From a virus (Duplodnaviria; Heunggongvirae; Uroviricota; Caudoviricetes), in the IMG/VR virus record IMGVR_UViG_3300031963_000058, positions 24,100 through 88,099 of that record: 64,000 nt of DNA; one strand, given 5' to 3'. Below the pieces are notes generated by a model. That model saw only the letters and a list, made by a program, of their open reading frames with translations, did not search any database and had not been told where the DNA came from. Positions within the stretch are counted from its first letter, which is position 1. Every line of letters begins with the position of its first letter. Made by a program: the position numbers and the translations under genes. This document shows, piece by piece, positions 44,008 to 61,080 of the stretch.

Positions 44008-44047
44008 AAAAAATATTTGGTAGTCTCAAATAATGGTTATATCTTTG
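44008..44047 (+). promoter_or_regulatory. Promoter cassette: TTTG (-33-like, inside ATATTTGG) - spacer - TATCTTTG (-7)
   Basis: A near-identical ~55-nt cassette recurs at 44825..44865. Confidence 0.5.
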
Positions 44048-44099
44048 CAGTATCAAACAAAGGTAATCGCGTGTTGCGTTATCTAAAAAAAATCACATC

Positions 44100-44272: not shown

Positions 44273-44623
44273 ATGTTTACACCTGATGAATCGTCTCTAA
44301 TAATTAATGCCTTGATGGCATATGGCATTGAGAAGTCGAATATTTATGATAAACTATATGCTATGAATGATGGCTTGTTTGCTGAGAATAAACCTGGGCA
44401 TTCGCTTGGAATGATGTCACTTAATGAGCTAAGTATTGCAAAGTCTATCTTGGAGGACAGGATTCAGAAGCACTATGAATGGTCTAGAGCGTATCAGTAC
44501 ATTGATCTTGAGAAGCATATTGCCAGAACCAAAGAAGCTAATGATGATCCTAAGATCAAATCTTACGGTGAAAAACTCAATCGGATTAACGAAAGGATCG
44601 AAACTATTATTAATTCAATTTAA
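44273..44623 (+). CDS. hypothetical protein (117 aa)
   Basis: Internal ATG chosen (MFTPDESSL...); the listed ORF starts at 44222. Confidence 0.45.
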   Translation: MFTPDESSLIINALMAYGIEKSNIYDKLYAMNDGLFAENKPGHSLGMMSLNELSIAKSILEDRIQKHYEWSRAYQYIDLEKHIARTKEANDDPKIKSYGEKLNRINERIETIINSI

Positions 44624-44634
44624 AACCAACAATC

Positions 44635-44820
44635 ATGTTTAATTTCCAAAATACTTGCTCATTATTGTTCATTTTCATTTTTATTGAAATTTTCATTTTG
44701 CTTTTTGCAATGGCATTACCTATTAGTGTATATGAGAAATATCAAAAGGAATTTGAGAATGTGTTTGTTTTTATAGCATTTATATTGTTATTGTGTTTGT
44801 TATTTGTATTTTTTGTTTAA
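44635..44820 (+). CDS. small hydrophobic membrane protein (61 aa)
   Basis: Two TM-like segments. Confidence 0.35.
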   Translation: MFNFQNTCSLLFIFIFIEIFILLFAMALPISVYEKYQKEFENVFVFIAFILLLCLLFVFFV

Positions 44821-44824
44821 ACTT

Positions 44825-44865
44825 GAAAAAATATTTGCTAGTATCAAATAAAGGATATATCTTTG
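44825..44865 (+). promoter_or_regulatory. Second copy of the promoter cassette (ATATTTGC ... TATCTTTG)
   Basis: Duplicate of 44008..44047. It drives the tRNA-like element immediately downstream. Confidence 0.5.
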
Positions 44866-44879
44866 CAGTGTTAAATAAA

Positions 44880-44927
44880 GGGTGATGGGGTGCTTCACAA
44901 TAGGGTTCGAATCCCGCACTTCCGCTA
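44880..44927 (+). ncRNA. tRNA-like fragment / minihelix (T-arm-like GGG-TTCGAAT-CCC inside a GGTGC/GCACT stem) with its own promoter
   Basis: Contains the canonical T-loop sequence GGTTCGAATCC, but no full cloverleaf could be folded by hand. Confidence 0.3.
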
Positions 44928-45001
44928 GGGGGTGTGTAAGTGGGGTTAAATGTGACCGCCGGAAAACAGCCTAATCGTTGAACAAAAAAAAACAAAAAAA
45001 A

Positions 45002-45199
45002 ATGCTAAAAATTATTGAAGGTCTGCTTTACAATCTTGTAATGTTCTTCTCATTGGTAAAAATCGGGCAGGGTAAAGATGTGTATTTTTATGCATTTTGC
45101 TTTACAGGTTGCTTATGTGGTTTGATTGTATCAGTAGTTAACACGAATATTTCGATTCTGGAGGATAAATTATCTGAGAAAGATAAAAACCCAAAATAA
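45002..45199 (+). CDS. small membrane protein (65 aa)
   Basis: ATG at 45002; hydrophobic. Confidence 0.35.
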   Translation: MLKIIEGLLYNLVMFFSLVKIGQGKDVYFYAFCFTGCLCGLIVSVVNTNISILEDKLSEKDKNPK

Positions 45200-45353
45200 A
45201 ATAATAATGAAGTAGGAGACCAAACTATTAAGTTTGCTGAAGGTCCCGAATTCTTTAAAGCGCAAAAGGCATCAGTTACTCTCGAATGAGGCTCAAAACG
45301 AGCTGAGGAATACACGGGTCTTACGGAAACGTATCGAGCATTATTTATTTATT

Positions 45354-45432
45354 GGTCAGGTGGCGGAATTGGCAGACGTACCATATAAGACAGACTGCAT
45401 TGGTTTTACAGGTTCGAATCCTGTCCTGGTCA
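45354..45432 (+). tRNA. tRNA-like gene with a Leu-type D-arm (GGCGGAATTGGCAGAC) and an atypical, enlarged anticodon-arm region
   Basis: Acceptor GGTCAGG pairs with CCTGGTC (two G-U pairs) and U8 is present. T-arm ACAGG-TTCGAAT-CCTGT. The anticodon region ACCAT-ATAAGAC-(AGACTGC)-ATTGGT carries about 8 extra nt, with a possible anticodon AAG. Confidence 0.45.
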
Positions 45433-45469
45433 CAATCTTTTACTCAATTAACTTAACATTTTTAAAAAA

Positions 45470-45892
45470 ATGGCTGAAGTGTTAAAATATGATGTTCAAG
45501 AACAAATTGAATCATGTCTTAAATCATCTAAGACACGATTTAATTTGTTGGATACAGATAATATTGGTTGTGTGTACGAAGTTTTCGTATCTTCGCTTCC
45601 CTGTTATATTCAAGTTGAATATGATTTGGAAACAGAAGAAGATGATTGTGTGATCATTCAATTTTTTGCTAAAGTTGGTGACGGAGATAATTATTTATAT
45701 CATGAGATCTGGGATAGTACTAATAATAGTACTTCTATAGAAGATGAAATTTATGAACTAGTTGAAGCAAACAAGAAATTTAACAAAGTATTGAATAAAA
45801 TCAATAAAAATCTTGAAAGTATTAAAGAGATTTGTCAAGATCACGGATTAGAATATGAAGATTTCATCCAGGTAAAATATAATTTCGAATGA
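45470..45892 (+). CDS. acidic hypothetical protein (140 aa)
   Basis: ORF. Confidence 0.45.
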   Translation: MAEVLKYDVQEQIESCLKSSKTRFNLLDTDNIGCVYEVFVSSLPCYIQVEYDLETEEDDCVIIQFFAKVGDGDNYLYHEIWDSTNNSTSIEDEIYELVEANKKFNKVLNKINKNLESIKEICQDHGLEYEDFIQVKYNFE

Positions 45893-45962
45893 TAAAAATG
45901 CAATACGGATAGAAAATTTCAGTGGAAAGAAAAAAAAACTTGCATGGATTAAATAAACGTAT

Positions 45963-45970
45963 TATCTTTG
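45963..45970 (+). promoter_or_regulatory. Bacteroidota-type -7 box TATCTTTG only 5 nt from the ATG, possibly a leaderless transcript
   Basis: The arrangement is TATCTTTGTAGC-ATG, with an upstream TTGCA. Confidence 0.45.
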
Positions 45971-45974
45971 TAGC

Positions 45975-46361
45975 ATGAAACTAAAGAGATTTGAACTAAC
46001 AGAACTATATCTGGAGATTATAGTTATTCTTGGTATAATTCTCACATTTATAATAATCTTTTTTTCTGTTAATATAATTAAAAACTCAGGTTATATGAGT
46101 GAAAAATTACTTACACATTGTGACGGTGTTCCGTCACAACATTCAGTTGGTGACAGCGTTAGAACTAAAGAAAATATATGTAGCCTTCTAAGAACACATA
46201 TATTATATCGACGAAACGATAATACAGGAATTGAGGAATATCTCGGAAAAGATTGTAAGATTGTCGAAGTCCGTTATACTGAAGAGTATAAATGTTACAT
46301 ATATCTGATAGATATTGACAATGGTGATTATTGGTGGGTTGATGAATCTTTTACAAATTAA
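45975..46361 (+). CDS. hypothetical protein with an N-terminal TM segment (128 aa)
   Basis: ORF. Confidence 0.45.
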   Translation: MKLKRFELTELYLEIIVILGIILTFIIIFFSVNIIKNSGYMSEKLLTHCDGVPSQHSVGDSVRTKENICSLLRTHILYRRNDNTGIEEYLGKDCKIVEVRYTEEYKCYIYLIDIDNGDYWWVDESFTN

Positions 46362-46381
46362 ACATATTTCAAAAAAATATC

Positions 46382-47113
46382 ATGGTAGCTGGAAACTATT
46401 ATTATATAACAAATCACACACACAATTTTCTCACTAATAAACTTGTGTTTTGTGTTGAGGTTAACGACAATACTTGCACTCTAAGATGTGGTGTTGTATC
46501 TTATGATATAGATCTATCAACTATTACATACAATAAAGTAAATTTGCCGCCAGCAACACCGGAACCAACACCTACAGTTGAAGGACCTGCGTTCACGGCA
46601 TATACGTGGTCGTATACCTATGACGCGAAGCCAAAACCGCTAGAATATGGGCAAATTCATGGTAATAAGATTATCAAGAATAAGAAAGGTTATTTGTATC
46701 GATTTGGTAATACCAATTTGATTCTTTGGTTTGACATGCTCTATGGTCATGAAAATGATAAGATACAGTATCGTCTACCGTTTAGCCCTATTCGGACATC
46801 ATCTATTTTGCCTGAGGATTATTACGACGCTGATAAAATGCCCGCTTGGAGTCTTCATGCTAAAGGCAGCTTGAAATATACAACCTGTGGGGCGAAGTTA
46901 TTTCATGTATATCTAGGTAATCCGGATGATGATTATACATTATTATTGCTAGATGCTGACGTTAATTGCGATCTTAATTATTTTGGTGATCTTGTAAACC
47001 ATTATAATAAAGTACAAATCGGTAATGATAATTTTACACTAGGCCTTTTTAGAAGTGATTATACAGATGCGATTAATCTTTCTGAGATTGTTGACATTGA
47101 TCAGATTAAGTAA
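46382..47113 (+). CDS. member 1 of the 46-51 kb paralogue family (243 aa)
   Basis: Shares blocks (G.TN..I.L...Y...P.R.....C.G......) with 48642 and 50267. Confidence 0.5.
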   Translation: MVAGNYYYITNHTHNFLTNKLVFCVEVNDNTCTLRCGVVSYDIDLSTITYNKVNLPPATPEPTPTVEGPAFTAYTWSYTYDAKPKPLEYGQIHGNKIIKNKKGYLYRFGNTNLILWFDMLYGHENDKIQYRLPFSPIRTSSILPEDYYDADKMPAWSLHAKGSLKYTTCGAKLFHVYLGNPDDDYTLLLLDADVNCDLNYFGDLVNHYNKVQIGNDNFTLGLFRSDYTDAINLSEIVDIDQIK

Positions 47114-47130
47114 CTGTGAGGTTTGTAGAT

Positions 47131-47170
47131 AAAAAAAATGCACAACCGTAAATTATTGTAGTTTTTTTTT
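47131..47170 (+). terminator. Degenerate copy of the A-run/TGCACAA.../T-run terminator cassette
   Basis: AAAAAAAATGCACAACCGTAAATTATTGTAG followed by a T10 run. Confidence 0.4.
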
Positions 47171-47202
47171 TATCAAGATATTTATTATTAAAAATAATAA
47201 TT

Positions 47203-47601
47203 ATGAAAAAAATTATAAGACTAACTGAAGATGATTTAACAAGGATTGTTAAACGAATTATTAGCGAAGAAAAAAAATCAAAACATACGGATTATTATCG
47301 TATATATGGAGGAAAAAACAAGAAAAATCCTCCGTTTGAACCGGGTACAAAGATAAAACGTAAATGGAGAGTAGATGATGATGGAGAAGTAATAAAAGAC
47401 GGAAGAGAAATGTATGAGTTTGTGAGAATGGACGGAAACGTGATGAAGTTAAGGCCTCTAAACAAAGAGGCTCTATATAGTCAAGATACCACGCATCCAG
47501 AATATATAAAAAAGAATCAAAAAGCTGGATATAAGCCTAGATATGAAGATCTTGTACAGCTTCACTATAATCACGCAGACGCTTTCGAAGTCGTAAGTTA
47601 A
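47203..47601 (+). CDS. hypothetical protein with the shared N-terminal RLTE module (132 aa)
   Basis: N-terminus is MKKIIRLTEDDLTRIVKRIISEEKK. Confidence 0.5.
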   Translation: MKKIIRLTEDDLTRIVKRIISEEKKSKHTDYYRIYGGKNKKNPPFEPGTKIKRKWRVDDDGEVIKDGREMYEFVRMDGNVMKLRPLNKEALYSQDTTHPEYIKKNQKAGYKPRYEDLVQLHYNHADAFEVVS

Positions 47602-47656
47602 CCTTAAACTTCATAATTTATTTCTTAAAAAAGATAATCAATAATTATCATACAAT

Positions 47657-47693
47657 AAAAAAATGCACAATCATTGGCGATTGTGCATTTTTA
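47657..47693. terminator. Bidirectional terminator hairpin (ATGCACAATC / GATTGTGCAT, 10-bp stem) with an A7 run and a T4 run
   Basis: Perfect inverted repeat between convergent genes. A near-identical copy lies at 48122..48160. Confidence 0.7.
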
Positions 47694-47710
47694 TGTGGGG
47701 GACATAGTTA

Positions 47711-48091
47711 TTAGTTATTTTCCATTTCATCAAATTTCTTGACTAAGAATTTCCATATTTTTTTAGCCATGCTGTAAGAGCAATCAATTACTTTATTATC
47801 ATACCTAACAATTAAACTATTCATAAGTAAAACAGGTATAGATGTATCTTCAATCTCTAAATATGTTTCGTCATGGAGCCTATACTTGATGATAGAATAA
47901 TTAGATTTTACAGATAGATTTTTAGGATTAAATGTGTTTTCAATATAATCTAATATCTCACTTAATTTTTTATCCTCATCTGAAGTTATTTTTTTATCAA
48001 AAAAAGCCTCGTCTAACTTTTTTTGTTCATTAATGACTTTTTTAACAATTTTTGTTAAATCATCTTCAGTCAATCTTATAATTCTTTTCAT
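47711..48091 (-). CDS. hypothetical protein with the shared N-terminal RLTE module (126 aa), paralogue of 48151
   Basis: N-terminus is MKRIIRLTEDDLTKIVKKVINEQKKLDEAF. Confidence 0.5.
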   Translation of the reverse strand: MKRIIRLTEDDLTKIVKKVINEQKKLDEAFFDKKITSDEDKKLSEILDYIENTFNPKNLSVKSNYSIIKYRLHDETYLEIEDTSIPVLLMNSLIVRYDNKVIDCSYSMAKKIWKFLVKKFDEMENN

Positions 48092-48121
48092 AATTATTTT
48101 TTTAATAATAAATATCTATAA

Positions 48122-48160
48122 TAAAAAAAAACACAATCATTGGCGATTGTTCATTTTTTT
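48122..48160 (-). terminator. Terminator hairpin (ACAATC ATTGGC GATTGT core) with an A9 run and a T7 run; duplicate of the 47657 cassette
   Basis: Near-identical sequence to 47657..47693. It lies 3' of 48151..48561. Confidence 0.6.
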
Positions 48161-48561
48161 ACGATCCTTTTGGGCTTATTAATAGGTTTAATAATTGATT
48201 TTGATTTAAAGAAATTCCATATTTTTCTGGCCATTATATACGAGCAACGAATCTCCTTACCATCTAATAATACAATCATGTTACTGTCTGGGGGTAAAGA
48301 TAACCAAGCATTCACCACCCTTAAAACTCCAGCAGAACCTCCAAAAATTCTGTATTCATACATATATCCATTAGGATATAGAGATAAATCATCTAGATTA
48401 AAATTATCTTTGATAATTTTAAAGATATTTTCTAACATTTCATCATTTTCTGAAGTGAATATACTACGAATAAAAGCCTCGTCTAAGTTTTTTTGTTCAT
48501 TAATTACTTTTTTAACAATCCTGGTTAAATCATCTTCAGTCAACCTTATAGTTCTTTTCAT
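48151..48561 (-). CDS. hypothetical protein with the shared N-terminal RLTE module (136 aa), paralogue of 47711
   Basis: N-terminus is MKRTIRLTEDDLTRIVKKVINEQKNLDEAF. The C-terminal halves also align (CSYIMARKIWNFF vs CSYSMAKKIWKFL). The antisense ORF 48140..48589 is rejected. Confidence 0.5.
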   Translation of the reverse strand: MKRTIRLTEDDLTRIVKKVINEQKNLDEAFIRSIFTSENDEMLENIFKIIKDNFNLDDLSLYPNGYMYEYRIFGGSAGVLRVVNAWLSLPPDSNMIVLLDGKEIRCSYIMARKIWNFFKSKSIIKPINKPKRIVKK

Positions 48562-48629
48562 AACTATTATTTTAACAATAAATATCTAGAATTTAAAAAA
48601 AAACTTTTTATAATTTCATATAATAGTCT

Positions 48630-48637
48630 TATCTTTG
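48630..48637 (+). promoter_or_regulatory. Bacteroidota-type -7 box TATCTTTG 4 nt from the ATG
   Basis: The arrangement is TATCTTTGTTGC-ATG. Confidence 0.45.
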
Positions 48638-48641
48638 TTGC

Positions 48642-49478
48642 ATGGAAGCAGGAAAATTTTATCTTATAAAAACAGATACCGGCGGAGCTTTGACCGGGCT
48701 TAGAGTTCATTGCTTAGCTGTTTATAGGACCCATGTTAGTTTATATCAAATGGGGATGCATTACTTTGTTCCACTATCCAGCCTTACATATTCTGAACTT
48801 AAGATGCCTGAGGTTGGTAAGCACTATCATATAAATGGAATTATTGATGGTGTTACACGCCACGATGTTGCGTTATGTGTAGAACATATCCGTGATATGG
48901 AGTTTAAGCTTGTATTCCCAGGTGGTAGATCGTTTTCTGTTGATGTTAGTAATTTAACATTCATTGAAGTTAATCCGGCAGAAATTACTGAGCCAAAAAA
49001 AATGCGGTATACGGATTTAACGCCAAATACACTTGTTAAAGCAGCAAATGACGCTATTGTTATTAGGTTGGGTACCACTAATATTGTTATTAAGTTATAC
49101 CCTAAACAGTTAATTGGGCCAGAGTTTGAATTAGATATTAAAAGACTACCATATACTGTTGTAAGAACATCAACACACGTTGGTAGTAAGTATTATAGGG
49201 ACGAAATGCCTATTCATATGTATACATTGACTGGTACATTAACAAACCTTAAATGTGGTGGCATTCTGTTCGATATAACAGATCTAAATCAACATGTGAC
49301 GCAACATACATTATATGTTGCACATAATTATTATCCCAAAAATGACAAAACACCTATGGTTCTTCAAAGCTTGTCACATAATGTTAAACTATTTAACTTA
49401 GGAAGTGCGACTTATGAATGTTGCATAGTATCTCCTGAAGATAAAACGTCGATTGAGCTTAATCAGCTTTTCGAATAA
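48642..49478 (+). CDS. member 2 of the 46-51 kb paralogue family (278 aa)
   Basis: Aligns with 46382 and 50267. The antisense ORF 48827..49078 is rejected. Confidence 0.5.
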   Translation: MEAGKFYLIKTDTGGALTGLRVHCLAVYRTHVSLYQMGMHYFVPLSSLTYSELKMPEVGKHYHINGIIDGVTRHDVALCVEHIRDMEFKLVFPGGRSFSVDVSNLTFIEVNPAEITEPKKMRYTDLTPNTLVKAANDAIVIRLGTTNIVIKLYPKQLIGPEFELDIKRLPYTVVRTSTHVGSKYYRDEMPIHMYTLTGTLTNLKCGGILFDITDLNQHVTQHTLYVAHNYYPKNDKTPMVLQSLSHNVKLFNLGSATYECCIVSPEDKTSIELNQLFE

Positions 49479-49498
49479 AAAATAAAAAAAATAAGAAA

Positions 49499-50260
49499 AT
49501 GCGTTTTTATAAACCAGCTAGAGCAAAAGAGACACGCAGAGGTTATTTCTCATATTTAACTGAAGCTGTTGGTAACTTAGTAACTTATTATGATCATAAA
49601 GGTTATAATTCAGACTTAATACTATATTTTGATTTGTGGGATATGCCAGGGTACGGTTCGGGGAATATGTTTGATGTAGCGTTTGAGAAACAAGATCATG
49701 ATGACTACAAAAATAACAAGTATGAGAACATCGAGTATTATCAGCCAGGTATCAACACATATCAAACATATTTTGACAATGATTTAAGATTAAAAACAGA
49801 GCAGATAATAGCGAAGCATTATATAATAAATGGTGATATTAAAAAATTATTGTATAATCGTTTTATTAATTATGATTTAAGCAAAACAATTGGTGTTCAT
49901 TACCGAACGACAGATATTACTTTACATCATCCTATAGTTCATATTAATAAAATATTTGAGGCTATTGAAGCGGAAGAGTTTGATCATATATTTTTGGCAA
50001 CCGATTCTAAAAATGAGTATTTCAAATTTAAACAACGATATGGTGAAAAACTTTTGTTTTTCGATAGGACAGCATCAGAAGACTCTATGGTTTTCTTTAG
50101 CAAAAAGAACCCACAAATCTTGATAGAAGAACATATTAAAGAACTTGTTTTCAGTGTTTTTGCCTTATCACAAACAAGAAAATTAATATGTACAAGATCC
50201 AATGTGTCAACATTTTCAATATTGTCTAATTCAAATCTTGATTTCACCATTTTAACATAA
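49499..50260 (+). CDS. putative fucosyltransferase-superfamily glycosyltransferase (GT11/GT23/POFUT-like)
   Basis: IGVHYRTTDI resembles motif I (IGVHVRRGDY) and HIFLATDS resembles the vf.aTDd motif of alpha-1,2/1,6 and O-fucosyltransferases. The match is weak. The antisense ORF 49984..50316 is rejected. Confidence 0.35.
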   Translation: MRFYKPARAKETRRGYFSYLTEAVGNLVTYYDHKGYNSDLILYFDLWDMPGYGSGNMFDVAFEKQDHDDYKNNKYENIEYYQPGINTYQTYFDNDLRLKTEQIIAKHYIINGDIKKLLYNRFINYDLSKTIGVHYRTTDITLHHPIVHINKIFEAIEAEEFDHIFLATDSKNEYFKFKQRYGEKLLFFDRTASEDSMVFFSKKNPQILIEEHIKELVFSVFALSQTRKLICTRSNVSTFSILSNSNLDFTILT

Positions 50261-50266
50261 AATAAA

Positions 50267-50734
50267 ATGATTGCCAGATACACAGACCTTGAACCTAACA
50301 AAAAAGTAAAAACCAATTATGATGAATACATTATCAGAATTGGTGACTCTAACGTAATGCTTCATGCAAGCTATCTATATGAGACTCCTGATGATCCAGA
50401 TATTTTTATGTTTCCCTGGAGAATGGAACGCACATACATGTATAATGATAAGCATATAAAAGGTATGCCGATGTGGATGCATGTTATGGATGGTCTTATG
50501 ACGCCCACGTCATGCGGAGGAAGGATTATATATCTTAATTCTGATGACGAAGTTATGGACAATACTACGGTTCTAATGATTCCTAGAGATAGCGACATTG
50601 AAACATCACCGTTGGCCAATATCGCTACAGAAGTAATTACTTTTGCTATTGACGGACAAAATTATGATGTGGCCATTATTCGTACAGAGAAGCAAGAATC
50701 CGTCGACCTGAAAGACTTTTTTACTCAGCGATAA
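50267..50734 (+). CDS. member 3 (short) of the 46-51 kb paralogue family (155 aa)
   Basis: IRIGDSNVMLHASYLY...TSCGGRIIY parallels the RLGTTNIVIKLYP...KCGGILF and FGNTNLILWFDMLY...TCGAKLF blocks of the other two members. Confidence 0.5.
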   Translation: MIARYTDLEPNKKVKTNYDEYIIRIGDSNVMLHASYLYETPDDPDIFMFPWRMERTYMYNDKHIKGMPMWMHVMDGLMTPTSCGGRIIYLNSDDEVMDNTTVLMIPRDSDIETSPLANIATEVITFAIDGQNYDVAIIRTEKQESVDLKDFFTQR

Positions 50735-50788
50735 AAAACATTTGACTATTTGATATAATAGTAGTAACTTTATTTTTGTAATCCATTT

Positions 50789-50919
50789 TAGTCAGGTGGC
50801 GGAATTGGTAACGCCCCGGTCTAAATCCGAAAAAGAGTAGTAGCTCTATGATGGATGAAAACCGGGTCAGCTTGTAGAGCTACACATACATGGTTGCAGG
50901 TTCGAGTCCTGCCCTGACT
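50789..50919 (+). tRNA. tRNA-like gene (131 nt) with a Leu-type D-arm and a large insertion in the anticodon/variable region
   Basis: A perfect 7-bp acceptor AGTCAGG pairs with CCTGACT; U8 is present. D-arm GCG-GAATTGGTAA-CGC. T-arm GCAGG-TTCGAGT-CCTGC. The stem CCCGGT...ACCGGG encloses about 40 nt that include TCTAAAT, with possible anticodon TAA (Leu), or CTA in the GTCTAAA register. Confidence 0.4.
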
Positions 50920-50940
50920 GATTACTTAAAACTTATTCTT

Positions 50941-51147
50941 ATGAAAGAACTAAAAGAATTTATTGAAGACGGTATTACTATCTCCAAAACAAATAGCGGA
51001 TATGAAGTTTTTACTATAAAAACGCAGAAATTCAATATTAACTCTCTCGATGAATTGACTCCGGAGAGTTTTATGACTGCAATTGAAAGCCAAAGAAAAT
51101 TGACAGAACTACAAAATCAGATCTACACAGCGTCTGGCTTACCATAA
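50941..51147 (+). CDS. small hypothetical protein (68 aa)
   Basis: ATG at 50941; the listed ORF starts at 50890, inside the tRNA-like gene. Confidence 0.4.
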   Translation: MKELKEFIEDGITISKTNSGYEVFTIKTQKFNINSLDELTPESFMTAIESQRKLTELQNQIYTASGLP

Positions 51148-51171
51148 AATATATTATATAAACATAGTATG

Positions 51172-51210
51172 ACGATTACTAGGGTAATACCTGGTAATCG
51201 TTTTTTTTAT
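51172..51210. terminator. Hairpin (ACGATTAC...GTAATCGT) plus a T8 run between convergent genes
   Basis: 8-bp stem plus T-run. It marks the proximal boundary of the tandem array. Confidence 0.55.
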
Positions 51211-51227
51211 TCATACTAATAGTATAA

Positions 51228-51533
51228 TTACTTTGGTGTATGAAGTTTATATGTAACCTCTTTAATAGTATTTATATGAATTTCAAATTTATTCTCAATC
51301 CAGGAACTAAAAATCATTTCAAAGTCTTCTTTTGATACTGGGACTATCTTAGTAAGATCATCTCTGAATCTTTTATAGTAATACACAACACCGGTCCAGT
51401 GAATGCGGACGATAGAGGCACGATCATCTTTATTGTAAAGCTCTATATTATTTTTGTTTTCAATGACAATCAGCTTGTCAAACCTGGAATAGAACCAGTT
51501 CATGGTTCTACGATATGATTTATGGTTGTCCAT
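51228..51533 (-). CDS. ~100-aa tandem array family, subfamily A, copy 1
   Basis: Has the family pattern Y..I..W.Y..FDKL.V...........IVRIH..G.VYYY..F...L.KI.P....DFE....W.E.KF.I. Confidence 0.55.
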   Translation of the reverse strand: MDNHKSYRRTMNWFYSRFDKLIVIENKNNIELYNKDDRASIVRIHWTGVVYYYKRFRDDLTKIVPVSKEDFEMIFSSWIENKFEIHINTIKEVTYKLHTPK

Positions 51534-51572
51534 AATAATTAATTTGTTAGTTTAATTTTAAAAATTTTTTGA

Positions 51573-51872
51573 CTATTGTGATATTGAACTTGCGTGTATC
51601 TTAATTACTTTTATTTTAAATTTATCTTCGATCCAGGATGTTAAAAACAGTTCGAAGTCGTTGATACTTATTGGTATAATTTTAACTAGATCAAGCATAA
51701 AATCTTCATAATAAAAGATTTCACCTTCATTGTTTATCAAATATACTCGTATAACAGAATCTTCTTCTATATCAAAAAGATTTATTTTTTCATTGGTAGT
51801 ATAAAACGTCAGCATATCAAACTTGTGATAAAACCATTTCCTGATTTTAATATATGATTTTTCATTCTTCAT
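51573..51872 (-). CDS. ~100-aa tandem array family, subfamily A, copy 2
   Basis: Contains KWFYHKFDML...IRVYLINNEGEIFYYEDF...DFELFLTSWIEDKFKIKV. Confidence 0.6.
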   Translation of the reverse strand: MKNEKSYIKIRKWFYHKFDMLTFYTTNEKINLFDIEEDSVIRVYLINNEGEIFYYEDFMLDLVKIIPISINDFELFLTSWIEDKFKIKVIKIHASSISQ

Positions 51873-51885
51873 GATCCTGTGTTTC

Positions 51886-52170
51886 TTAGATTTTGACGTG
51901 CATTTTAGTTAGTTTTATTTTGAATTTATCTTCGATCCATTCTCTCAGAAACATTTCAAAATCTGCATTTTTAATAGGGATAACACTAACCAGATCATAC
52001 CTGAAGAATACGAAATAAAATGCTTCTTTTTCCGATTTATATATACGGACCACAGAAAACTCATGCTTATCCCTAAGCACTATTTTTTCAGTGTCCTCAG
52101 ATTCTTTCAACTTATCAAATTGGTTATAAAACCATCTCCTGGTTTTAAGATATAACTTATTTTCGCTCAT
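51886..52170 (-). CDS. ~100-aa tandem array family, subfamily A, copy 3
   Basis: Contains RWFYNQFDKL...VVRIYKSEKEAFYFVFF...DFEMFLREWIEDKFKIKL. Confidence 0.6.
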   Translation of the reverse strand: MSENKLYLKTRRWFYNQFDKLKESEDTEKIVLRDKHEFSVVRIYKSEKEAFYFVFFRYDLVSVIPIKNADFEMFLREWIEDKFKIKLTKMHVKI

Positions 52171-52196
52171 ATAACATATACTTTGATTGGGCCATA

Positions 52197-52496
52197 TTAG
52201 TTATAATCACTTTCACGTACATCATCGATTTTTAGGCCGAATTTCTCTTCGATCCATTTTACCAAGAACAATTCAAAATCCGATGTTTCTAATGGTATTA
52301 TTTTAGTTAAATAATATCTGAATCCGGCATAATAATATACCAAAATCTCATCATCATATATATAAATCCGAACAAATTTCGATTTATTATCTTTACTACT
52401 GAGGATTATACGATTTTCATCTGCGGTCACAATCAACTGATCAAATTTCATGTAAAACCATCTTATGACTTTAATATATAACTTATTTTCGCTCAT
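52197..52496 (-). CDS. ~100-aa tandem array family, subfamily A, copy 4
   Basis: Contains RWFYMKFDQLIV...SSKDNKSKFVRIYIYDDEILVYYY...DFELFLVKWIEEKFGLKI. It is preceded by the 26-nt junction ATAACATATACTTTGATTGGGCCATA, identical to the one at 52497. Confidence 0.6.
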   Translation of the reverse strand: MSENKLYIKVIRWFYMKFDQLIVTADENRIILSSKDNKSKFVRIYIYDDEILVYYYAGFRYYLTKIIPLETSDFELFLVKWIEEKFGLKIDDVRESDYN

Positions 52497-52522
52497 ATAA
52501 CATATACTTTGATTGGGCCATA

Positions 52523-52822
52523 TTACTTATAATCACTTTCATATACATAATCGATTTTTAGGCCGAATTTATCTTCGATCCATTCTTTCAAGAAAAATTC
52601 AAAGTCCAATCTTTCTAATGGTATTATTTTAGTTAACTGATATTTGAATCTAATATAATAATATACCAAAATCTCATCATCATATATATAAATCCGAACA
52701 AATTTCGATTTATTATCTTTACTACTGAGATTTATATTATCTTCATCTACAGTCACAATCAACTGATCAAATTTCTTGTAAAACCATCTCCTGGTTTTAA
52801 GATATAATAGTTCTTTACTCAT
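52523..52822 (-). CDS. ~100-aa tandem array family, subfamily A, copy 5
   Basis: The 24-aa block SSKDNKSKFVRIYIYDDEILVYYY is identical to copy 4, while the flanks differ, so the copies are mosaic. Confidence 0.6.
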   Translation of the reverse strand: MSKELLYLKTRRWFYKKFDQLIVTVDEDNINLSSKDNKSKFVRIYIYDDEILVYYYIRFKYQLTKIIPLERLDFEFFLKEWIEDKFGLKIDYVYESDYK

Positions 52823-52831
52823 AATACTATT

Positions 52832-53131
52832 TTAATAAACCGATTCATTGAATGGCCGGATAATTCGCACATTTATATTGAATTTATTTTCAACCCAATT
52901 GGCTAAAATAGTGTCAAAGTCGGATTGTGATATCGGGAACAGTTTAAACAACTTGTGCATATAATTTACATCGTAAAATACTTCACCATAATTTAGATAA
53001 ATTCGAATATCGCATTTAAAATCAATATATGTGTGAAGATGTAAAACTTTGCGTTCAGTGACAATTGTCAACTTTTCAAACTGATTATAAAACCATCTCC
53101 CGGCTTTAACATAAAATTTTAGTTTACTCAT
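52832..53131 (-). CDS. ~100-aa tandem array family, subfamily A, copy 6
   Basis: Contains RWFYNQFEKL...IRIYLNYGEVFYDVNY...DFDTILANWVENKFNINV. Confidence 0.55.
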   Translation of the reverse strand: MSKLKFYVKAGRWFYNQFEKLTIVTERKVLHLHTYIDFKCDIRIYLNYGEVFYDVNYMHKLFKLFPISQSDFDTILANWVENKFNINVRIIRPFNESVY

Positions 53132-53173
53132 ATTGGCAAATGTTTTTAAGATTCAATAGCCTGAAATATATCT

Positions 53174-53479
53174 TCAAAGTAAAGCATTTAAATACCAACT
53201 GTAGCTGTTGACTTTTTTAACTTTAATTCCGAATTTATGTTCGACCCACATAATTAAAAGTATTTCAAAATCAACGTTTGGTACCGGAAATTTTTGAATG
53301 ACTTTTTTCTTGAAATCTGTCATATAATAAACAATGCCGAACTTTTTATATATTCTAATTACAGAATATTCGTCGTCGTAAGGGCTAAGGTCTATTTTAT
53401 CCTCATCTTCTCTCACGAACAACACATCAAATTTCTTATAAAGAACCCTTCTTGCCGCTAGATATAATTTATCATCCAT
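53174..53479 (-). CDS. ~100-aa tandem array family, subfamily A, copy 7
   Basis: Contains RRVLYKKFDVL...VIRIYKKFGIVYYMTDF...DFEILLIMWVEHKFGIKV. Confidence 0.55.
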   Translation of the reverse strand: MDDKLYLAARRVLYKKFDVLFVREDEDKIDLSPYDDEYSVIRIYKKFGIVYYMTDFKKKVIQKFPVPNVDFEILLIMWVEHKFGIKVKKVNSYSWYLNALL

Positions 53480-53516
53480 AATAATCTTTTATCTTAATAA
53501 ATATAACATCTTCATA

Positions 53517-53813
53517 TTATGGCCGGAATCTCATTCTATATATGTTATTTATTTTAACTTTAAATTTTTCGTCAATCCATTGACATAAAAGCAATTCGAA
53601 GTCTTCTATTTGCATGGGGAATACATTAATGATCCTTTGCATGTAATCTTCGTAATAAAAAACCCTTTCAAGCTCTTTATAAATGTGAATAGTAATGCGA
53701 GGATCGTCGTCATGGCGAAGTTCTACAACATGATCAGATTCCCATACACCCAGGTTATTAAACTTCCTGTAGGTCCATTTTTGAGCCACACGGTATAATT
53801 TATCTTTGAGCAT
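53517..53813 (-). CDS. ~100-aa tandem array family, subfamily A, copy 8
   Basis: Contains KWTYRKFNNL...ITIHIYKELERVFYYEDY...DFELLLCQWIDEKFKVKI. The antisense ORF 53610..53798 is rejected. Confidence 0.55.
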   Translation of the reverse strand: MLKDKLYRVAQKWTYRKFNNLGVWESDHVVELRHDDDPRITIHIYKELERVFYYEDYMQRIINVFPMQIEDFELLLCQWIDEKFKVKINNIYRMRFRP

Positions 53814-54159
53814 AAATCATATAACTAACTTGGGGGTTAACTATTAACAAGTCAAAAGCTATGACTTCAGTTACTTTAATATCAAATTTATATTGTACCC
53901 ATTTTTTTAGCAGTAATTCGAAATCTTCGATTTGCATGGGGAATAACTTAATTATTTTTTTCATGTAATCTACGTTATAACATACACAACCATCACTTTT
54001 GTAAATTCGAATAATAGTCTTATTGTTGAGACAAGAACACAGAGTAATGCAAGATGGCTCATTGTCTTGTTCTTTCACCAGAGTATCGAACTTATTATTA
54101 ATCCATTTTCCGGCTATGTTATATAGCTTTTCTTTATCCATGATTGTACATGCTAGCAC
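53800..54159 (-). CDS. ~100-aa tandem array family, subfamily A, copy 9
   Basis: Contains KWINNKFDTL...IIRIYKSDGCVCYNVDY...DFELLLKKWVQYKFDIKV. The likely start is the internal MDKEKLY at about 54141. Confidence 0.55.
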   Translation of the reverse strand: MLACTIMDKEKLYNIAGKWINNKFDTLVKEQDNEPSCITLCSCLNNKTIIRIYKSDGCVCYNVDYMKKIIKLFPMQIEDFELLLKKWVQYKFDIKVTEVIAFDLLIVNPQVSYMIYAQR

Positions 54160-54451
54160 TAGAGGAAACTTCTATTATTTCAATGTTATAATTATCTTTA
54201 ACCCAATTCTTCAATAAGAAATTAAATAGGCTGATTTTCATTGGTAACATACTAGTAAGTTTATTTCTATATCCTCCTAAATAACAAACAAGATTACGAT
54301 TTTTATAGATCACAATAGTTGAGTCAGTATCACCTTTACGCTTAAGTGATATTTTTTCGATATCTTCAGATACGACCAGATTACTAAGTTTCCTTTGTAA
54401 CCATTTTTGAGTTATAGTATATAGCTTATCTTCGTTCATAGTAAAGAACAA
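54134..54451 (-). CDS. ~100-aa tandem array family, subfamily A, copy 10
   Basis: Contains KWLQRKLSNL...IVIYKNRNLVCYLGGY...SLFNFLLKNWVKDNYNIEI. Confidence 0.5.
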   Translation of the reverse strand: MFFTMNEDKLYTITQKWLQRKLSNLVVSEDIEKISLKRKGDTDSTIVIYKNRNLVCYLGGYRNKLTSMLPMKISLFNFLLKNWVKDNYNIEIIEVSSSASMYNHG

Positions 54452-54528
54452 AGGTACAGGATAAAATTAACAAATTCAAATAATTAAAAATAAATTGGGG
54501 GAGCTAAAATGGGGGGGATATGTACAAA

Positions 54529-54822
54529 TTAAAAAAGGAGGTCAATGATTTTATTTATTTTAATTTCACATTTACTTTCAATCCATCTACGTAAAAGAAT
54601 CTCAAAATCAATGATATTTAAGGCAAGTTTTTTACTAACTAGGTCTCTCAAGCGATGTGTATAATAAACATTACCTGTGGCTTTATAAATTCGTATAACA
54701 AAAAAAGAATCATTTTTATAACCGAAATATAAATTTTCTTCACAGTTTGAGATTACGTGCAGTTCATCAAATTTGCTATAAACCCATTTTTTTATGCTAT
54801 TATGATATTTTTCTTTATACAT
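54529..54822 (-). CDS. ~100-aa tandem array family, subfamily B, copy 1
   Basis: Contains KKWVYSKFDELHV...VIRIYKATGNVYYTHRL...DFEILLRRWIESKCEIKI. Confidence 0.6.
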   Translation of the reverse strand: MYKEKYHNSIKKWVYSKFDELHVISNCEENLYFGYKNDSFFVIRIYKATGNVYYTHRLRDLVSKKLALNIIDFEILLRRWIESKCEIKINKIIDLLF

Positions 54823-54827
54823 GCCAT

Positions 54828-55154
54828 TTAAAAATTAGAGTTAAAACCAGGTATGCGGACATCTGTTGTCTGTCTGATACTTTTCACATGTATTTTAAAT
54901 TTTTCTTCAACCCATCTACCCAAGAGTATTTCAAAATCTTCATATTCTAGTCGAATAAACTTAAAAAGTTTCTTTGCGAAACCATGATAATAAAAAACTC
55001 GGCCTGTGTGTTTAAAAATTAGGATCTGAGCGTAATCATCTCTATCGTAATGTAAATAACTTACAAGCCCATTAGGGTTATCATATAATTTTAGCTCGTC
55101 GAACTTTTTATATAACAATTTTTTTATGCTATTATAATATTGCTCTTTATCCAT
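54828..55154 (-). CDS. ~100-aa tandem array family, subfamily B, copy 2
   Basis: Contains MDKEQYYNSIKKLLYKKFDEL...DFEILLGRWVEEKFKIHV. Confidence 0.6.
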   Translation of the reverse strand: MDKEQYYNSIKKLLYKKFDELKLYDNPNGLVSYLHYDRDDYAQILIFKHTGRVFYYHGFAKKLFKFIRLEYEDFEILLGRWVEEKFKIHVKSIRQTTDVRIPGFNSNF

Positions 55155-55180
55155 ATTTAAAGATTTATAGTTTACCTTTA

Positions 55181-55495
55181 TTAAGCTATCGGGCGGCTAC
55201 GTACTACACAAATTATGACATTATCCACCTTCATTTGAAAGGTCTCTTCGACCCATCTTTTCAAAAGTATTTCAAAGTCATGCTTTTCAATGCGAAGATG
55301 TTTACAAATTTTCTCGCTGAATTCATAATAATAGTAAACATGACCAAATTTTTTATCAATTTCAACCTGAGTATATTCGCCATTTTTATAACGAAGATAC
55401 ACGTTACTCCCTTTCTTTCTTTTAATCACTTCCAGTTCATCAAACTTTCCATAAACCCATTTTTTTATTCTATTATAATATTGTTCTTTATCCAT
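55181..55495 (-). CDS. ~100-aa tandem array family, subfamily B, copy 3
   Basis: Contains MDKEQYYNRIKKWVYGKFDELEV...DFEILLKRWVEETFQMKV. The antisense ORF 55235..55501 is rejected. Confidence 0.6.
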   Translation of the reverse strand: MDKEQYYNRIKKWVYGKFDELEVIKRKKGSNVYLRYKNGEYTQVEIDKKFGHVYYYYEFSEKICKHLRIEKHDFEILLKRWVEETFQMKVDNVIICVVRSRPIA

Positions 55496-55517
55496 ATTTA
55501 AATATTTATACTGTTAA

Positions 55518-55835
55518 TTAGAATTTATCATCAACATCATACACCGTTGGAAGGGGGGAAATTACAGTCACCTTAATTTCAAGAATATCTTCAATATATG
55601 CACCCAGAATTATTTCAAAATCAATAATACCCATTGGAACCTTTTTAAGCAGATCGTTTGCGAATCCAATATAATAACAAACTAAGCCTGAACTTTTATG
55701 AATCCGGAGCTGAGGAAAATCATCATTCTTTTTATATAGGTATAAAGTACCTTCAGAGGTTTCAATTATGTACAGCTTATCAAGCTTGTTAGATAACCAA
55801 TTTTTTATTTTATTATAATATTGTTCTTTATCCAT
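55518..55835 (-). CDS. ~100-aa tandem array family, subfamily B, copy 4
   Basis: Contains MDKEQYYNKIKNWLSNKLDKL...DFEIILGAYIEDILEIKV. Confidence 0.6.
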   Translation of the reverse strand: MDKEQYYNKIKNWLSNKLDKLYIIETSEGTLYLYKKNDDFPQLRIHKSSGLVCYYIGFANDLLKKVPMGIIDFEIILGAYIEDILEIKVTVISPLPTVYDVDDKF

Positions 55836-55872
55836 GCCGTATTATTTATTATTAGCCATCACTTGAAAGGTA

Positions 55873-56190
55873 TCAATCAACAATGATTTCTCTTCCGACG
55901 ATCCTTTTAACCATTTTAGTTACCTTAATTTTAAATCTATCTTCAATCCATTTGCTCAGAATTATTTCAAAATCAGCCTCTTTCAAACGAATCCTGTTAA
56001 AAAATTTCTCACTAAACATATAATAATAAAAAACTATACCTGAATTTTTTTGAATTCGTATATCACAATATTTTTGATTTTTATATTTAAAAAATAAGTT
56101 ATTTCCATTAAGGCTTTCAATTACTTTCAGTTCATCAAACTTAATATAAAGCCATTTTTTTATTCTATCATAATATTCTTCTTTACTCAT
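55873..56190 (-). CDS. ~100-aa tandem array family, subfamily B, copy 5
   Basis: Contains MSKEEYYDRIKKWLYIKFDELKV...DFEIILSKWIEDRFKIKV. Confidence 0.6.
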   Translation of the reverse strand: MSKEEYYDRIKKWLYIKFDELKVIESLNGNNLFFKYKNQKYCDIRIQKNSGIVFYYYMFSEKFFNRIRLKEADFEIILSKWIEDRFKIKVTKMVKRIVGREIIVD

Positions 56191-56225
56191 ATTATTATAA
56201 TTTAACTTTTAGTTGAAAGGTTTTT

Positions 56226-56537
56226 TCAATAACATAATGTACCTGTATACCCCGGAATGATGGTGGCCACTTTCATTTTAAAGGTCTTTTTAATCCAATT
56301 GCTTAGAAGTGTTTCAAAGTCACGCTTTTGCAATCGAATCAGCTTAGAAATATTGTCCCTGAAAGCGGCATTATAGATAATTTGGTTGTATGTTTTTTCA
56401 ATACTGACCTGAATGTAAGCATTATCTTTGTAACGAAGGCATATTATTGTCCCATCGGAGCTTTCACTAACTTCCAGTTCATCAAACTTTCTGTATATCC
56501 AAATTTTTATTTTATTATAAAATTTTTCTTTATCCAT
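56226..56537 (-). CDS. ~100-aa tandem array family, subfamily B, copy 6
   Basis: Contains MDKEKFYNKIKIWIYRKFDELEV...DFETLLSNWIKKTFKMKV. The antisense ORF 56328..56543 is rejected. Confidence 0.6.
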   Translation of the reverse strand: MDKEKFYNKIKIWIYRKFDELEVSESSDGTIICLRYKDNAYIQVSIEKTYNQIIYNAAFRDNISKLIRLQKRDFETLLSNWIKKTFKMKVATIIPGYTGTLCY

Positions 56538-56548
56538 GATTAATTTAA

Positions 56549-56887
56549 TTAAATTTTCCTTTTGAATTTATGTTCAACAAACAGAACACGCACAACACCA
56601 ATAGACCGGATGTGAATAACATCTGTTTTAAACTTTTCTTCAACCCATCTGCCTAGGAGTATTTCGAAATCATTAGGATTCAAAGAAATTGGTTTAATAA
56701 TTTTATCCATAAAACCATTATAATACTGAATTATGCCACTATTTTTTCTAATTTTGATCTGAACTTGGTCATCATTTTTATAATGAAGATATATTGTGCT
56801 TCCATTATAACTTTCATATATATTCAGCCCATTGAACTTTTCATATATCCATTTTTTTATTTTATTATAATATTTTTCTTTATCCAT
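56549..56887 (-). CDS. ~100-aa tandem array family, subfamily B, copy 7
   Basis: Contains MDKEKYYNKIKKWIYEKFNGL...DFEILLGRWVEEKFKTDV. Confidence 0.6.
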   Translation of the reverse strand: MDKEKYYNKIKKWIYEKFNGLNIYESYNGSTIYLHYKNDDQVQIKIRKNSGIIQYYNGFMDKIIKPISLNPNDFEILLGRWVEEKFKTDVIHIRSIGVVRVLFVEHKFKRKI

Positions 56888-56930
56888 ATTATTTAAGTTT
56901 TATTTTGGAGGCATATTTAACGTTCATCAA

Positions 56931-57230
56931 CTATAAAAAGTATCTACCGGCCATGTCAGTAACCTTGATTTTAAATCTATCTTCAATCCATTCGCTCAGA
57001 AGGATATCAAAATCATCTCGTAGCAATCTAATAGGCTTACAAATTTTGTTTCTGTAGTCTGTATAATAGACTACATCGCCTAATTTTTTGTTAATTATGA
57101 TCTGAGTATATTTATTATTTTTATAACGAAGGCATATTGTGTCCTCACTATAAATTTTGTGTGGTTCAAGCTCATCAAACTTCCTGTACACCCAATTTTT
57201 TATTTTATTATAATACTCTTCTTTATCCAT
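56931..57230 (-). CDS. ~100-aa tandem array family, subfamily B, copy 8
   Basis: Contains MDKEEYYNKIKNWVYRKFDELE...DFDILLSEWIEDRFKIKV. Confidence 0.6.
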   Translation of the reverse strand: MDKEEYYNKIKNWVYRKFDELEPHKIYSEDTICLRYKNNKYTQIIINKKLGDVVYYTDYRNKICKPIRLLRDDFDILLSEWIEDRFKIKVTDMAGRYFL

Positions 57231-57259
57231 ATCATTTAAGTTTTATTTTGGAGGCATCT

Positions 57260-57574: not shown

Positions 57575-57575
57575 A

Positions 57576-57917: not shown

Positions 57918-57929
57918 ATCATTGAATTT

Positions 57930-58259: not shown

Positions 58260-58288
58260 ATCATTTAATTTTTATTTGAAAGGTATCT

Positions 58289-58603: not shown

Positions 58604-58615
58604 ATCATTTAATTT

Positions 58616-58948: not shown

Positions 58949-58949
58949 A

Positions 58950-59294: not shown

Positions 59295-59306
59295 ATCATT
59301 TAATTT

Positions 59307-59636: not shown

Positions 59637-59714
59637 GTTATTTAAATTTTATTTGAAGGGTATCTTCAACCTGCAATATATTTGAGTACAGCCGCTGTAT
59701 GGTGTTGATCACCT

Positions 59715-60044: not shown

Positions 60045-60056
60045 ATCATTAAAATT

Positions 60057-60380: not shown

Positions 60381-60381
60381 G

Positions 60382-60726: not shown

Positions 60727-60738
60727 GTCATTTAATTT

Positions 60739-61068: not shown

Positions 61069-61080
61069 ATCATTTAATTT

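Follow-up and report, generated by a model that had tools for sequence, protein, structure and literature searches.

Phage tRNA genes are usually considered solely in terms of help with codon usage or of countering tRNA-cleaving defenses. Other roles of tRNA-like RNAs have been described in several systems. The phage T4 tRNA cluster encodes two small stable RNAs, species 1 and 2 (rnaC and rnaD), which do not decode and are matured by tRNA-processing enzymes. In mitochondrial tRNA punctuation, and in viral signals such as the tRNA-microRNA units of murine gammaherpesvirus 68 (MHV68), RNase P and RNase Z cleavage signals define the ends of neighboring RNAs. The engineered "tRNA scaffold" is a chimera that is processed and stabilized as a tRNA, and transfer-messenger RNA (tmRNA) joins an aminoacylatable tRNA-like domain to a large functional domain. 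Here, we describe two elements that invite comparison with these systems. They lie in a 64,000-nt stretch of a Caudoviricetes genome (IMG/VR record IMGVR_UViG_3300031963_000058, positions 24,100 to 88,099), which is referred to below as the window and whose own numbering is used throughout. Our preferred reading, to which we assign a probability of roughly 0.55, is that they are anticodon-less derivatives of phage tRNA-Leu that are excised by tRNA-processing enzymes as stable RNAs and serve as a chassis for a central domain. We name such elements tRNA-Leu-like elements (TLEs) and refer to the two as TLE1 and TLE2. They belong to a large, phage-restricted, and apparently undescribed RNA family in which the acceptor, D-, and T-arms of tRNA-Leu are combined with an unrelated segment in place of the anticodon arm.

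RESULTS

Two tRNA-Leu-like elements without an anticodon arm

TLE1 (79 nt) lies at positions 45354..45432 and TLE2 (131 nt) at 50790..50920, both on the plus strand, as delimited with the Rfam tRNA model RF00005 and the covariance model R1 described below. Against a gathering threshold of 29 bits, RF00005 scored TLE1 at 36.4 bits (E value of 2.6e-6 locally and 5.5e-4 for the whole window) and TLE2 at 42.5 bits. A preliminary description of this DNA had proposed Leu-type tRNA-like genes with a nonstandard anticodon region, and the above-threshold scores and the lack of a canonical arm bear this out; its coordinates were correct for TLE1 and one base off for TLE2 (50789..50919). Two exact motifs, GGTGGCGGAATTGG and CAGGTTCGARTCCTG, are common to the two elements and occur without mismatches at these two window sites alone. 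Together with the Rfam scores, the shared motifs mean that the description is correct and does not reflect a chance resemblance.

In TLE1, the acceptor stem (45354-45360 paired with 45425-45431), the D-arm (45363-45379), and the T-arm (45408-45424) surround a weakly structured central domain of 28 nt (45380-45407). The discriminator is A (45432), with U at position -1 and C at +74. In TLE2, the corresponding parts are at 50790-50796 paired with 50913-50919 (acceptor), 50799-50814 (D-arm, with a D-loop shorter by one nucleotide), and 50896-50912 (T-arm); the discriminator is G (50920), and the next base is A, not C. The acceptor stems are paired at seven of seven positions in both elements, with two G-U pairs in TLE1, as read from the sequence. 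Both elements carry U8, A14, A15, G18G19, U48, and the T-loop TTCGA(A/G)T, and the D-arm is identical in sequence to the one in Escherichia coli tRNA-Leu(CAG).

The region between these arms is not that of a tRNA. In the RF00005 alignment, the anticodon arm of TLE1 holds 17 nt compared to the 11 expected, whereas that of TLE2 consists of a perfect CCGGU/ACCGG stem around CU plus 38 nt (40 nt inside the stem), followed by a variable region with ∼26 extra nucleotides. No register in either element gives a 5-bp stem and a 7-nt loop with U33 and R37, and none of the anticodons suggested earlier (AAG, TAA, and CTA) sits in a canonical loop. ARAGORN, a check that had been named beforehand, folded neither element as an ordinary tRNA; its sole tRNA call in the window is tRNA-Met(CAU) at 13730-13802. 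There was also no Rfam tmRNA match or ARAGORN tmRNA call in the window.

For TLE2, the minimum free energy (MFE) and centroid structures place a central rod of 50 nt (50816..50865) where the anticodon arm would be. The predicted rod contains the 5-bp helices CCGGU/ACCGG, AUCCG/UGGAU, and AGAGU/GCUCU, two 4x4 internal loops, and an AGUA cap, and its outer stem is the same stem as in the Rfam alignment. It is followed in the predicted fold by a variable-arm-like hairpin (50866-50883) and a 12-nt single-stranded linker (50884-50895) that precedes the T-arm. Overall, the MFE structure (-46.4 kcal/mol; z score of -2.95) is a cloverleaf, one arm of which is extended. An alternative 9-bp pairing, between GUAGCUCUA of the rod and UAGAGCUAC of the 50866-50895 segment, can be read from the sequence. 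A K-turn or C/D-box in AUGAUGGAUGA of TLE2 was considered and rejected, as there were only subthreshold small nucleolar RNA matches and no convincing motif by eye.

A phage family with a constant core and a variable middle

The 18-mer GTCAGGTGGCGGAATTGG from the 5′ half common to TLE1 and TLE2 occurs in at least 119 viral contigs. Nearly all of the contigs listed show the 5′ half AGTCAGGTGGCGGAATTGGTAGACGC and the 3′ half T-ACAGGTTCGAATCCTGT-CCTGACT-A, with a copy-specific stretch between them that differs in both sequence and length. When the 18-mer was searched against a single genome per species for 185,579 species of bacteria and archaea, 42 matches were found, mostly chance occurrences in GC-rich coding sequence and one a genuine tRNA-Leu. 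About 10 of the 42 were true family members, all of them on viral-looking contigs of metagenome-assembled genomes; these include three contigs binned as Flavobacterium and two as Chitinophagia or Chitinophagaceae. This rarity in cellular genomes indicates that the family is essentially viral and not a copy of the host tRNA-Leu.

Covariance model R1 was built from 41 seed copies, with the core pairs modeled and the middle left unstructured. It finds exactly two matches in the window, TLE1 at 65.0 bits (E value of 1.9e-16) and TLE2 at 63.7 bits (E value of 4.7e-16), scores that are partly circular because both elements are in the seed alignment; the exact 14-mer and 15-mer matches of TLE1 and TLE2 are evidence independent of that seed. 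Across 100 viral loci, R1 gave 244 matches, and members range from ∼52 to 87 bits. The family core reads AGUCAGG-UG-GCGGAAUUGGUAGACGC ... U-ACAGGUUCGAAUCCUGU-CCUGACU, which TLE1 and TLE2 match. In an alignment of 126 R1 matches, which was fitted to the R1 model and thus favors the structure, 98.5% of the cells in the core are in standard pairs, and compensatory changes are seen at 13 of the 15 pairs. These values were not reached in any of 500 shuffles, and slid controls gave ∼35% pairing. Copies are often clustered; for example, one locus holds ∼9 TLE copies within 3.5 kb, and another holds ∼10 beside 16 canonical tRNA genes.

A looser scan gave 177 distinct elements, 159 of which have no anticodon arm. 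The middles of these 159 are 16 to 121 nt long (median, 60), and grouping all 177 middles by sequence gave 155 clusters. Just 1 of 112 copies, a genuine tRNA-Leu(GAG), has a canonical anticodon hairpin in the canonical position, and 5 of 112 have one anywhere in the middle, compared to 5.7 ± 2.2 in shuffled middles. Of 118 copies, ARAGORN accepts 16, and in most of these calls the "anticodon" is either nonsense for a Leu body (such as act, ata, and aat) or 2 or 4 bases long. The only Rfam family matched in 14 array-rich loci is tRNA, and 12 of the 13 tRNA matches longer than 95 nt are TLEs; in these loci, long inserts are carried by the Leu scaffold only. Rfam likewise has no family for TLEs other than tRNA itself in the window and the 14 related loci, and intron or ribozyme families were matched neither at E values up to 10 in the two window regions nor at the gathering score in the 14 related loci.

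The alignments of some recurring middle types show that these are under selection. Type A, which is found in five contigs, has three compensatory pairs in its central helix, and type B has one pair with a compensatory change; in both types, the whole element is kept while the flanks are unrelated. The covariation in these recurring types argues that at least some central domains are functional. In type A (alignment A3), an invariant 3′ segment of the middle, GGUGGUAUAAAU, is complementary to the D-loop and the 3′ strand of the D-stem (AUUGGUAACGC), and RNAalifold prefers this pairing over the D-arm. The pairing may represent a second conformation, or it may be an artifact that arises because these alignment columns do not vary.

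Two further observations concern where inserts are found. On a contig designated L178, the elements at 658-794 and 91-221 carry an extra 30 to 40 nt in the D-loop, between GGAAU and UGG, with a hairpin of their own (GGCGCA...UGCGCC), so the scaffold of some members tolerates cargo at a second site. On another contig, L093, an Rfam tRNA match of 100 nt at 3767-3866 (minus strand; 29.5 bits) was missed by the TLE model at E values of ≤0.001 and may be a long-insert tRNA-like element on a different core.

Other routes to relatives gave little. A blastn search of 44500-52000 against 50,697 phage records returned no match, and relatives sought through neighboring proteins were not found in viral or metagenome contigs. 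An exact-protein look-up, whose only matches were near-identical copies of this phage, was uninformative on divergence. A 16-mer of the TLE2 middle had 7 chance matches and no TLE, a 14-mer of the type A middle had 120 mostly chance matches and no new member, and no ORF (open reading frame) family that might be a conserved partner occurs in more than 11 of the 119 loci. No description of the family was found in open-access full text, to which the literature search was limited, and a 2023 catalogue of 10,006 viral structured-RNA candidates mentions tRNA-like candidates of other isotypes only. A paper on AcrIIIA1 proved irrelevant to TLEs.

Flanks and placement of TLEs

TLEs and the genuine tRNAs of the same contigs have matching flanks. 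When 159 TLEs were compared with 204 canonical tRNAs predicted in the same loci, U was found at position -1 in 79% of the TLEs and 67% of the canonical tRNAs, A at -2 in 74% and 62%, and C at 74 in 96% and 87%, respectively. Position 75 is A/T and position 76 is A in both sets, and the trailer of TLEs is A-rich, as in the canonical tRNAs. Among the TLEs, position 73 is A in 91% and position 48 is U in 92%. U at -1 is the base preferred by bacterial RNase P. TLE1 shows the whole signature (U-1, A73, C74, and AA), whereas TLE2 has U-1 but G73 and A74.

TLEs are always oriented like the surrounding small ORFs. An ORF start (ATG) is found 8 to 30 nt downstream of 30% of the TLEs, compared to 12% of the canonical tRNAs and 10% of random positions, and another TLE or tRNA lies within 150 nt downstream of 34 of 161 TLEs.

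A further conserved motif, TTGACAGCTYGGAAAGACRAGCAA, adjoins TLEs in eight loci, upstream of the element in six and downstream in two. It is preceded by ..CCTCACNNTGCGTAGGTAAGYTTCAAG.. in several of the eight and is absent in that form from the window. Possible identities are a processing hairpin, a terminator hairpin, or the terminus of a different structured RNA.

Genomic setting of TLE1 and TLE2

The window is ∼30% GC and contains mostly ORFans, and its phage is present in many samples, in contigs of up to 277,584 bp. The ORFs are contiguous under translation table 11 across the 64 kb, in agreement with an earlier remark that recoding appears unnecessary for genes in the window. The Bacteroidota promoter consensus TTTG-N17-23-TAnnTTTG occurs 16 times compared to 6.2 expected, a count reached in 0 of 100 shuffles; examples are at 4376-4408, 44016-44047, 44834-44865, and 50749-50778. 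The sigma-70 consensus is not enriched in the window (44 compared to 47.7 expected). This difference between the two consensus sequences indicates that the host is probably a member of the Bacteroidota. Two of the promoter regions, 44008-44063 and 44826-44881, are copies that are 87.5% identical.

TLE2 appears to have a transcription unit of its own on the plus strand. A promoter motif, TTTG-N22-TATTTTTG (50749..50778), assigned on the strength of the consensus enrichment, ends 11 nt before TLE2; the ATG of a 68-aa ORF (50941..51147), taken from the ORF list with its translation, follows 20 nt after it; and a terminator-like hairpin with a T-run, of the intrinsic type (51171..51202), closes the unit. 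These positions give the order promoter, TLE2, ORF, and terminator.

TLE1, by comparison, has no Bacteroidota-type promoter motif directly upstream. The motif at 44834..44865 (plus strand) probably heads a unit that contains a small ORF of 65 aa (45002-45199, plus strand) and TLE1. Downstream of this promoter, the G-rich 5′ untranslated region at 44872-44985 (plus strand) includes, at 44902-44916, the string AGGGTTCGAATCCCG, which resembles a T-arm, and it ends in a long run of A residues ahead of the ATG at 45002. Its predicted folding is at the level of shuffled sequence (z score of -0.17). The T-arm-like string was considered as a third TLE and rejected, as it is not matched by model R1.

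The ATG of a 140-aa ORF (45470..45892, plus strand) lies 37 nt after TLE1, which is identical in all sampled contigs of the window's phage. A protein search found three diverged orthologues of this ORF, with 80%, 64%, and 59% identity, and none of the three is preceded by a TLE. Instead, the orthologue is preceded by a Bacteroidota promoter in one relative (L176), by the previous ORF at a distance of 26 nt in another (L177), and by a canonical tRNA(CAU) that ends 18 nt before the ATG in the third (L178). The nucleotide homology of the relatives to the window starts at 45462-45484. These differing upstream modules indicate that a TLE, a tRNA, and a promoter are interchangeable before one gene, and all three may be means of generating an mRNA 5′ end.

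Other features of the window

A GOLLD RNA was found at 14219-14646 (plus strand), with a score of 231.5 bits compared to a gathering threshold of 150 and a match that is full length to the 416-position model. It lies 417 nt downstream of the tRNA-Met(CAU) gene mentioned above. The same arrangement of tRNA-Met and GOLLD has been reported for the GOLLD env-38 RNA used in cryo-electron microscopy (PMC12286853).

Paralogous ORFs of 94 to 114 aa, at least 35 in number, form a tandem array at 51228-63820 on the minus strand, opposite to that of the TLE2 unit; the array begins just beyond this unit's terminator and runs head to tail until the window end. All 595 pairs are similar by BLASTP, with a median identity of 44%, and the one ORF tested has no Pfam match. 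Eleven consecutive ORFs of 274 to 319 aa at 19226-29481 (plus strand) show weak mutual similarity (14 of 55 pairs, 23 to 33% identity) and look like a second, older tandem array of paralogues; the first of them has no Pfam match. Finally, three segments of ∼120 to 165 nt (47132-47276, 47968-48160, and 48438-48605) are 83 to 85% identical, one of them inverted. They overlap small-ORF starts on both strands and are probably paralogous small genes in alternating orientation.

DISCUSSION

The simplest and most likely account of the conserved parts is that host enzymes of tRNA maturation treat TLEs as tRNAs. The acceptor/T-arm helix and the D/T elbow are the features that RNase P, RNase Z, and the CCA-adding enzyme read. 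According to the reading that we favor, TLEs would be cotranscribed with the surrounding small early or accessory genes, TLE2 from its own Bacteroidota-type promoter and TLE1 within an operon. The conserved acceptor/T-arm helix and the D-loop/T-loop elbow would fold into the L-shape of a tRNA, RNase P would cut the 5′ end after U-1, and the tRNA 3′-end pathway would trim after the discriminator or C74, with CCA then completed. Two products would result. One is a stable tRNA-shaped small RNA in which a lineage-specific central domain replaces the anticodon and variable arms and which cannot decode codons. The other is an mRNA for the ORF that follows, whose A-rich leader would be short and defined, as in tRNA punctuation.

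Several points weigh against this reading. The processing of TLEs is deduced from the sequence alone. In TLE1, the MFE of the isolated sequence is not significant (z score of +0.98), and the 28-nt middle has no convincing fold; TLE2 deviates from the family at G73 and A74. Across the family, the average middle has only weak structure (mean z score of -1.0), and 138 of the 155 middle clusters are singletons, so that selection on most middles is putative. Only 30% of the copies directly precede an ORF, and punctuation alone fails to explain either the tandem TLEs that have no ORF between them or the near-invariant sequence of the core. Finally, the longest complementarity of the TLE1 and TLE2 middles to the window is no better than that of shuffles. 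An antisense target within the window was rejected as an idea because of this shuffle-level complementarity.

A possible, if doubtful, alternative is that charging by the host leucyl-tRNA synthetase (LeuRS) is the point of the conserved core and that TLEs are leucylated mimics that do not decode. This alternative is compatible with the processing of TLEs as stable RNAs. Such mimics could, for example, donate aminoacyl groups; sequester or decoy LeuRS, EF-Tu, or a defense enzyme directed at tRNAs; or signal charged tRNA-Leu. The bacterial Leu identity set consists of A73, A14, A15-U48, G18G19, and A20a, with the elbow T-loop nucleotides U54, U55, C56, and A58; E. coli tRNA-Leu retains charging when it lacks the anticodon arm and the variable arm; and G73 is an antideterminant for LeuRS (PMC9976931). 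As read from the sequence, TLE1 has all of the identity nucleotides, and TLE2 has all but A73, which is replaced by G. Given this match and the charging of the armless E. coli tRNA-Leu, TLE1 may be leucylated, and TLE2, with its antideterminant, probably is not. The invariant part of the family matches the identity set (A73, A15-U48, G18G19, A20a, and the D-loop/T-loop tertiary pairs), and the high frequencies of A73 (91%) and U48 (92%), the D-arm shared with E. coli tRNA-Leu, and the restriction of long inserts to the Leu scaffold all fit. However, the same core is needed by RNase P, RNase Z, the CCA-adding enzyme, and modification enzymes, so its conservation does not single out LeuRS. The Leu-only scaffold could also reflect one founder gene, and the identity rules were drawn from E. 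coli and Aquifex, not from Bacteroidota.

It is unlikely that the conserved halves, ∼25 nt each, act at the DNA level as linkers whose shared homology allows the exchange of gene modules, with the RNA incidental, in the manner of the promoter stem-loops and boundary sequences at the mosaic junctions of other phages. There are 24 TLE pairs that share one flank (76 to 96% identity over 60 to 100 nt) and have unrelated middles and unrelated other flanks, which means that the conserved halves coincide with mosaic junctions between phage genomes; whole TLE types recur amid unrelated flanks, and the module before the 140-aa ORF varies among relatives. Recombination at repeats is, however, an expected by-product of any multicopy conserved element. 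The compensatory changes in 13 of 15 core pairs argue for selection on RNA pairing rather than on DNA identity, the flanks carry tRNA-processing signals, and the orientation of TLEs always follows that of the genes. Very improbable is the suggestion, made in the preliminary description, of functionless remnants, either decaying tRNA pseudogenes or attachment (att) sites. The lost anticodon arm, the short and poorly structured TLE1 middle, and the many singleton middles would all suit decay, but decay would have hit the core as well, and both halves are intact, near-invariant, and covarying in hundreds of copies from unrelated contigs, with processing-type flanks kept. Moreover, att remnants hold just one tRNA end, TLE1 is identical across the sampled contigs of its phage, and TLE2 has its own promoter motif. 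Least probable of all is that the elements are decoding tRNAs with small introns or expanded loops, including an amber or ochre suppressor (CTA or TAA) for TLE2, matured by a phage nuclease and ligase. In favor of this, recoded Bacteroidota phages are known to carry suppressor tRNAs, both elements keep an intact tRNA core with an above-threshold Rfam score, and UCUAAAU in TLE2 adjoins a good 5- to 6-bp stem. Yet UCUAAAU lies outside any 7-nt loop; neither element has CUA, UCA, or UUA in such a loop; and no register gives a 5-bp stem and 7-nt loop with U33 and R37, whether or not the insert is excised, which leaves the small intron proposed earlier with no anticodon arm to restore. The inserts, at 17 to 50 nt, are far below the size of a group I intron, and no group I intron or ribozyme family was matched. 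ARAGORN is negative for both elements, family-wide anticodon hairpins are at the chance level, and the few anticodons that ARAGORN does report are mostly nonsense. The ORFs of the window have no in-frame stops for a suppressor to read, and TLE phages already encode canonical tRNA-Leu genes.

If TLEs are indeed processed tRNA-Leu derivatives, then hundreds of anticodon-less copies keep what tRNA processing, and possibly charging, needs, and phages use the shape of a tRNA beyond decoding. TLEs that are missed by ARAGORN or given nonsense anticodons distort tRNA counts and "suppressor" calls in viromes, and model R1 and the 18-mer GTCAGGTGGCGGAATTGG offer a direct means to catalogue the family. 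If the central domains are effectors, the family would be a large untouched reservoir of small functional RNAs and a natural counterpart of a scaffold in wide use for RNA expression; if punctuation is the main role, the principle of mitochondrial tRNA punctuation would extend to phage operons. We raise more tentatively the idea that a single tRNA-Leu chassis serves as a natural display scaffold in phages of Bacteroidota, and perhaps of other hosts, on which each copy would carry a rapidly exchanged RNA effector (an aptamer, decoy, or antisense RNA) and would obtain its processing, stability, and possibly leucylation from host enzymes. Were this true, TLEs would amount to a modular, hypervariable RNA arsenal with an abundance comparable to that of GOLLD and ROOL, and they would be a natural precedent for tRNA-scaffold technology.

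Comparison with known systems

TLEs are close to the canonical type II tRNA-Leu of bacteria and phages, with which they share the 7-bp acceptor, U8, a 3-bp D-stem with the loop GAAUUGGUAGA, U48, the TTCGAAT T-arm, and A73. Their genomic flanks and their presence in tRNA arrays are also those of canonical phage tRNAs. Unlike tRNA-Leu, they have no anticodon stem-loop, ARAGORN rejects most copies, and the gap between the D-arm and the T-arm is 16 to 121 nt of unrelated sequence compared to ∼32 to 35 nt.

The engineered tRNA scaffold, of which PMC3753655 and PMC3401473 give examples, has the same layout, with the acceptor, D-, and T-arms kept and another RNA in place of the anticodon arm. It is man-made and based on other tRNAs, whereas TLEs are natural, multicopy, and Leu based, with a putative function for the cargo. 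In the tRNA-like domain of tmRNA, a tRNA-like acceptor/T-arm is likewise present without an anticodon, and the middle is likewise replaced. However, tmRNA has no true D-stem, is specific for alanine (G3-U70), and contains pseudoknots and a tag ORF, while the TLE middles are short and diverse. As in tRNA punctuation, TLEs lie 8 to 30 nt before ORF starts, at three times the chance frequency. In contrast to the mitochondrial case, they are found in bacterial phages, many are in tandem with no ORF between them, and the primary sequence of the core is conserved far beyond what punctuation needs. The T4 species 1 and 2 RNAs provide a further parallel in setting, as TLEs would also be stable nondecoding RNAs among phage tRNA genes that are matured by the tRNA-processing enzymes. 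The T4 RNAs are two genes in one phage group, whereas TLEs are a hypervariable multicopy family built on a Leu core.

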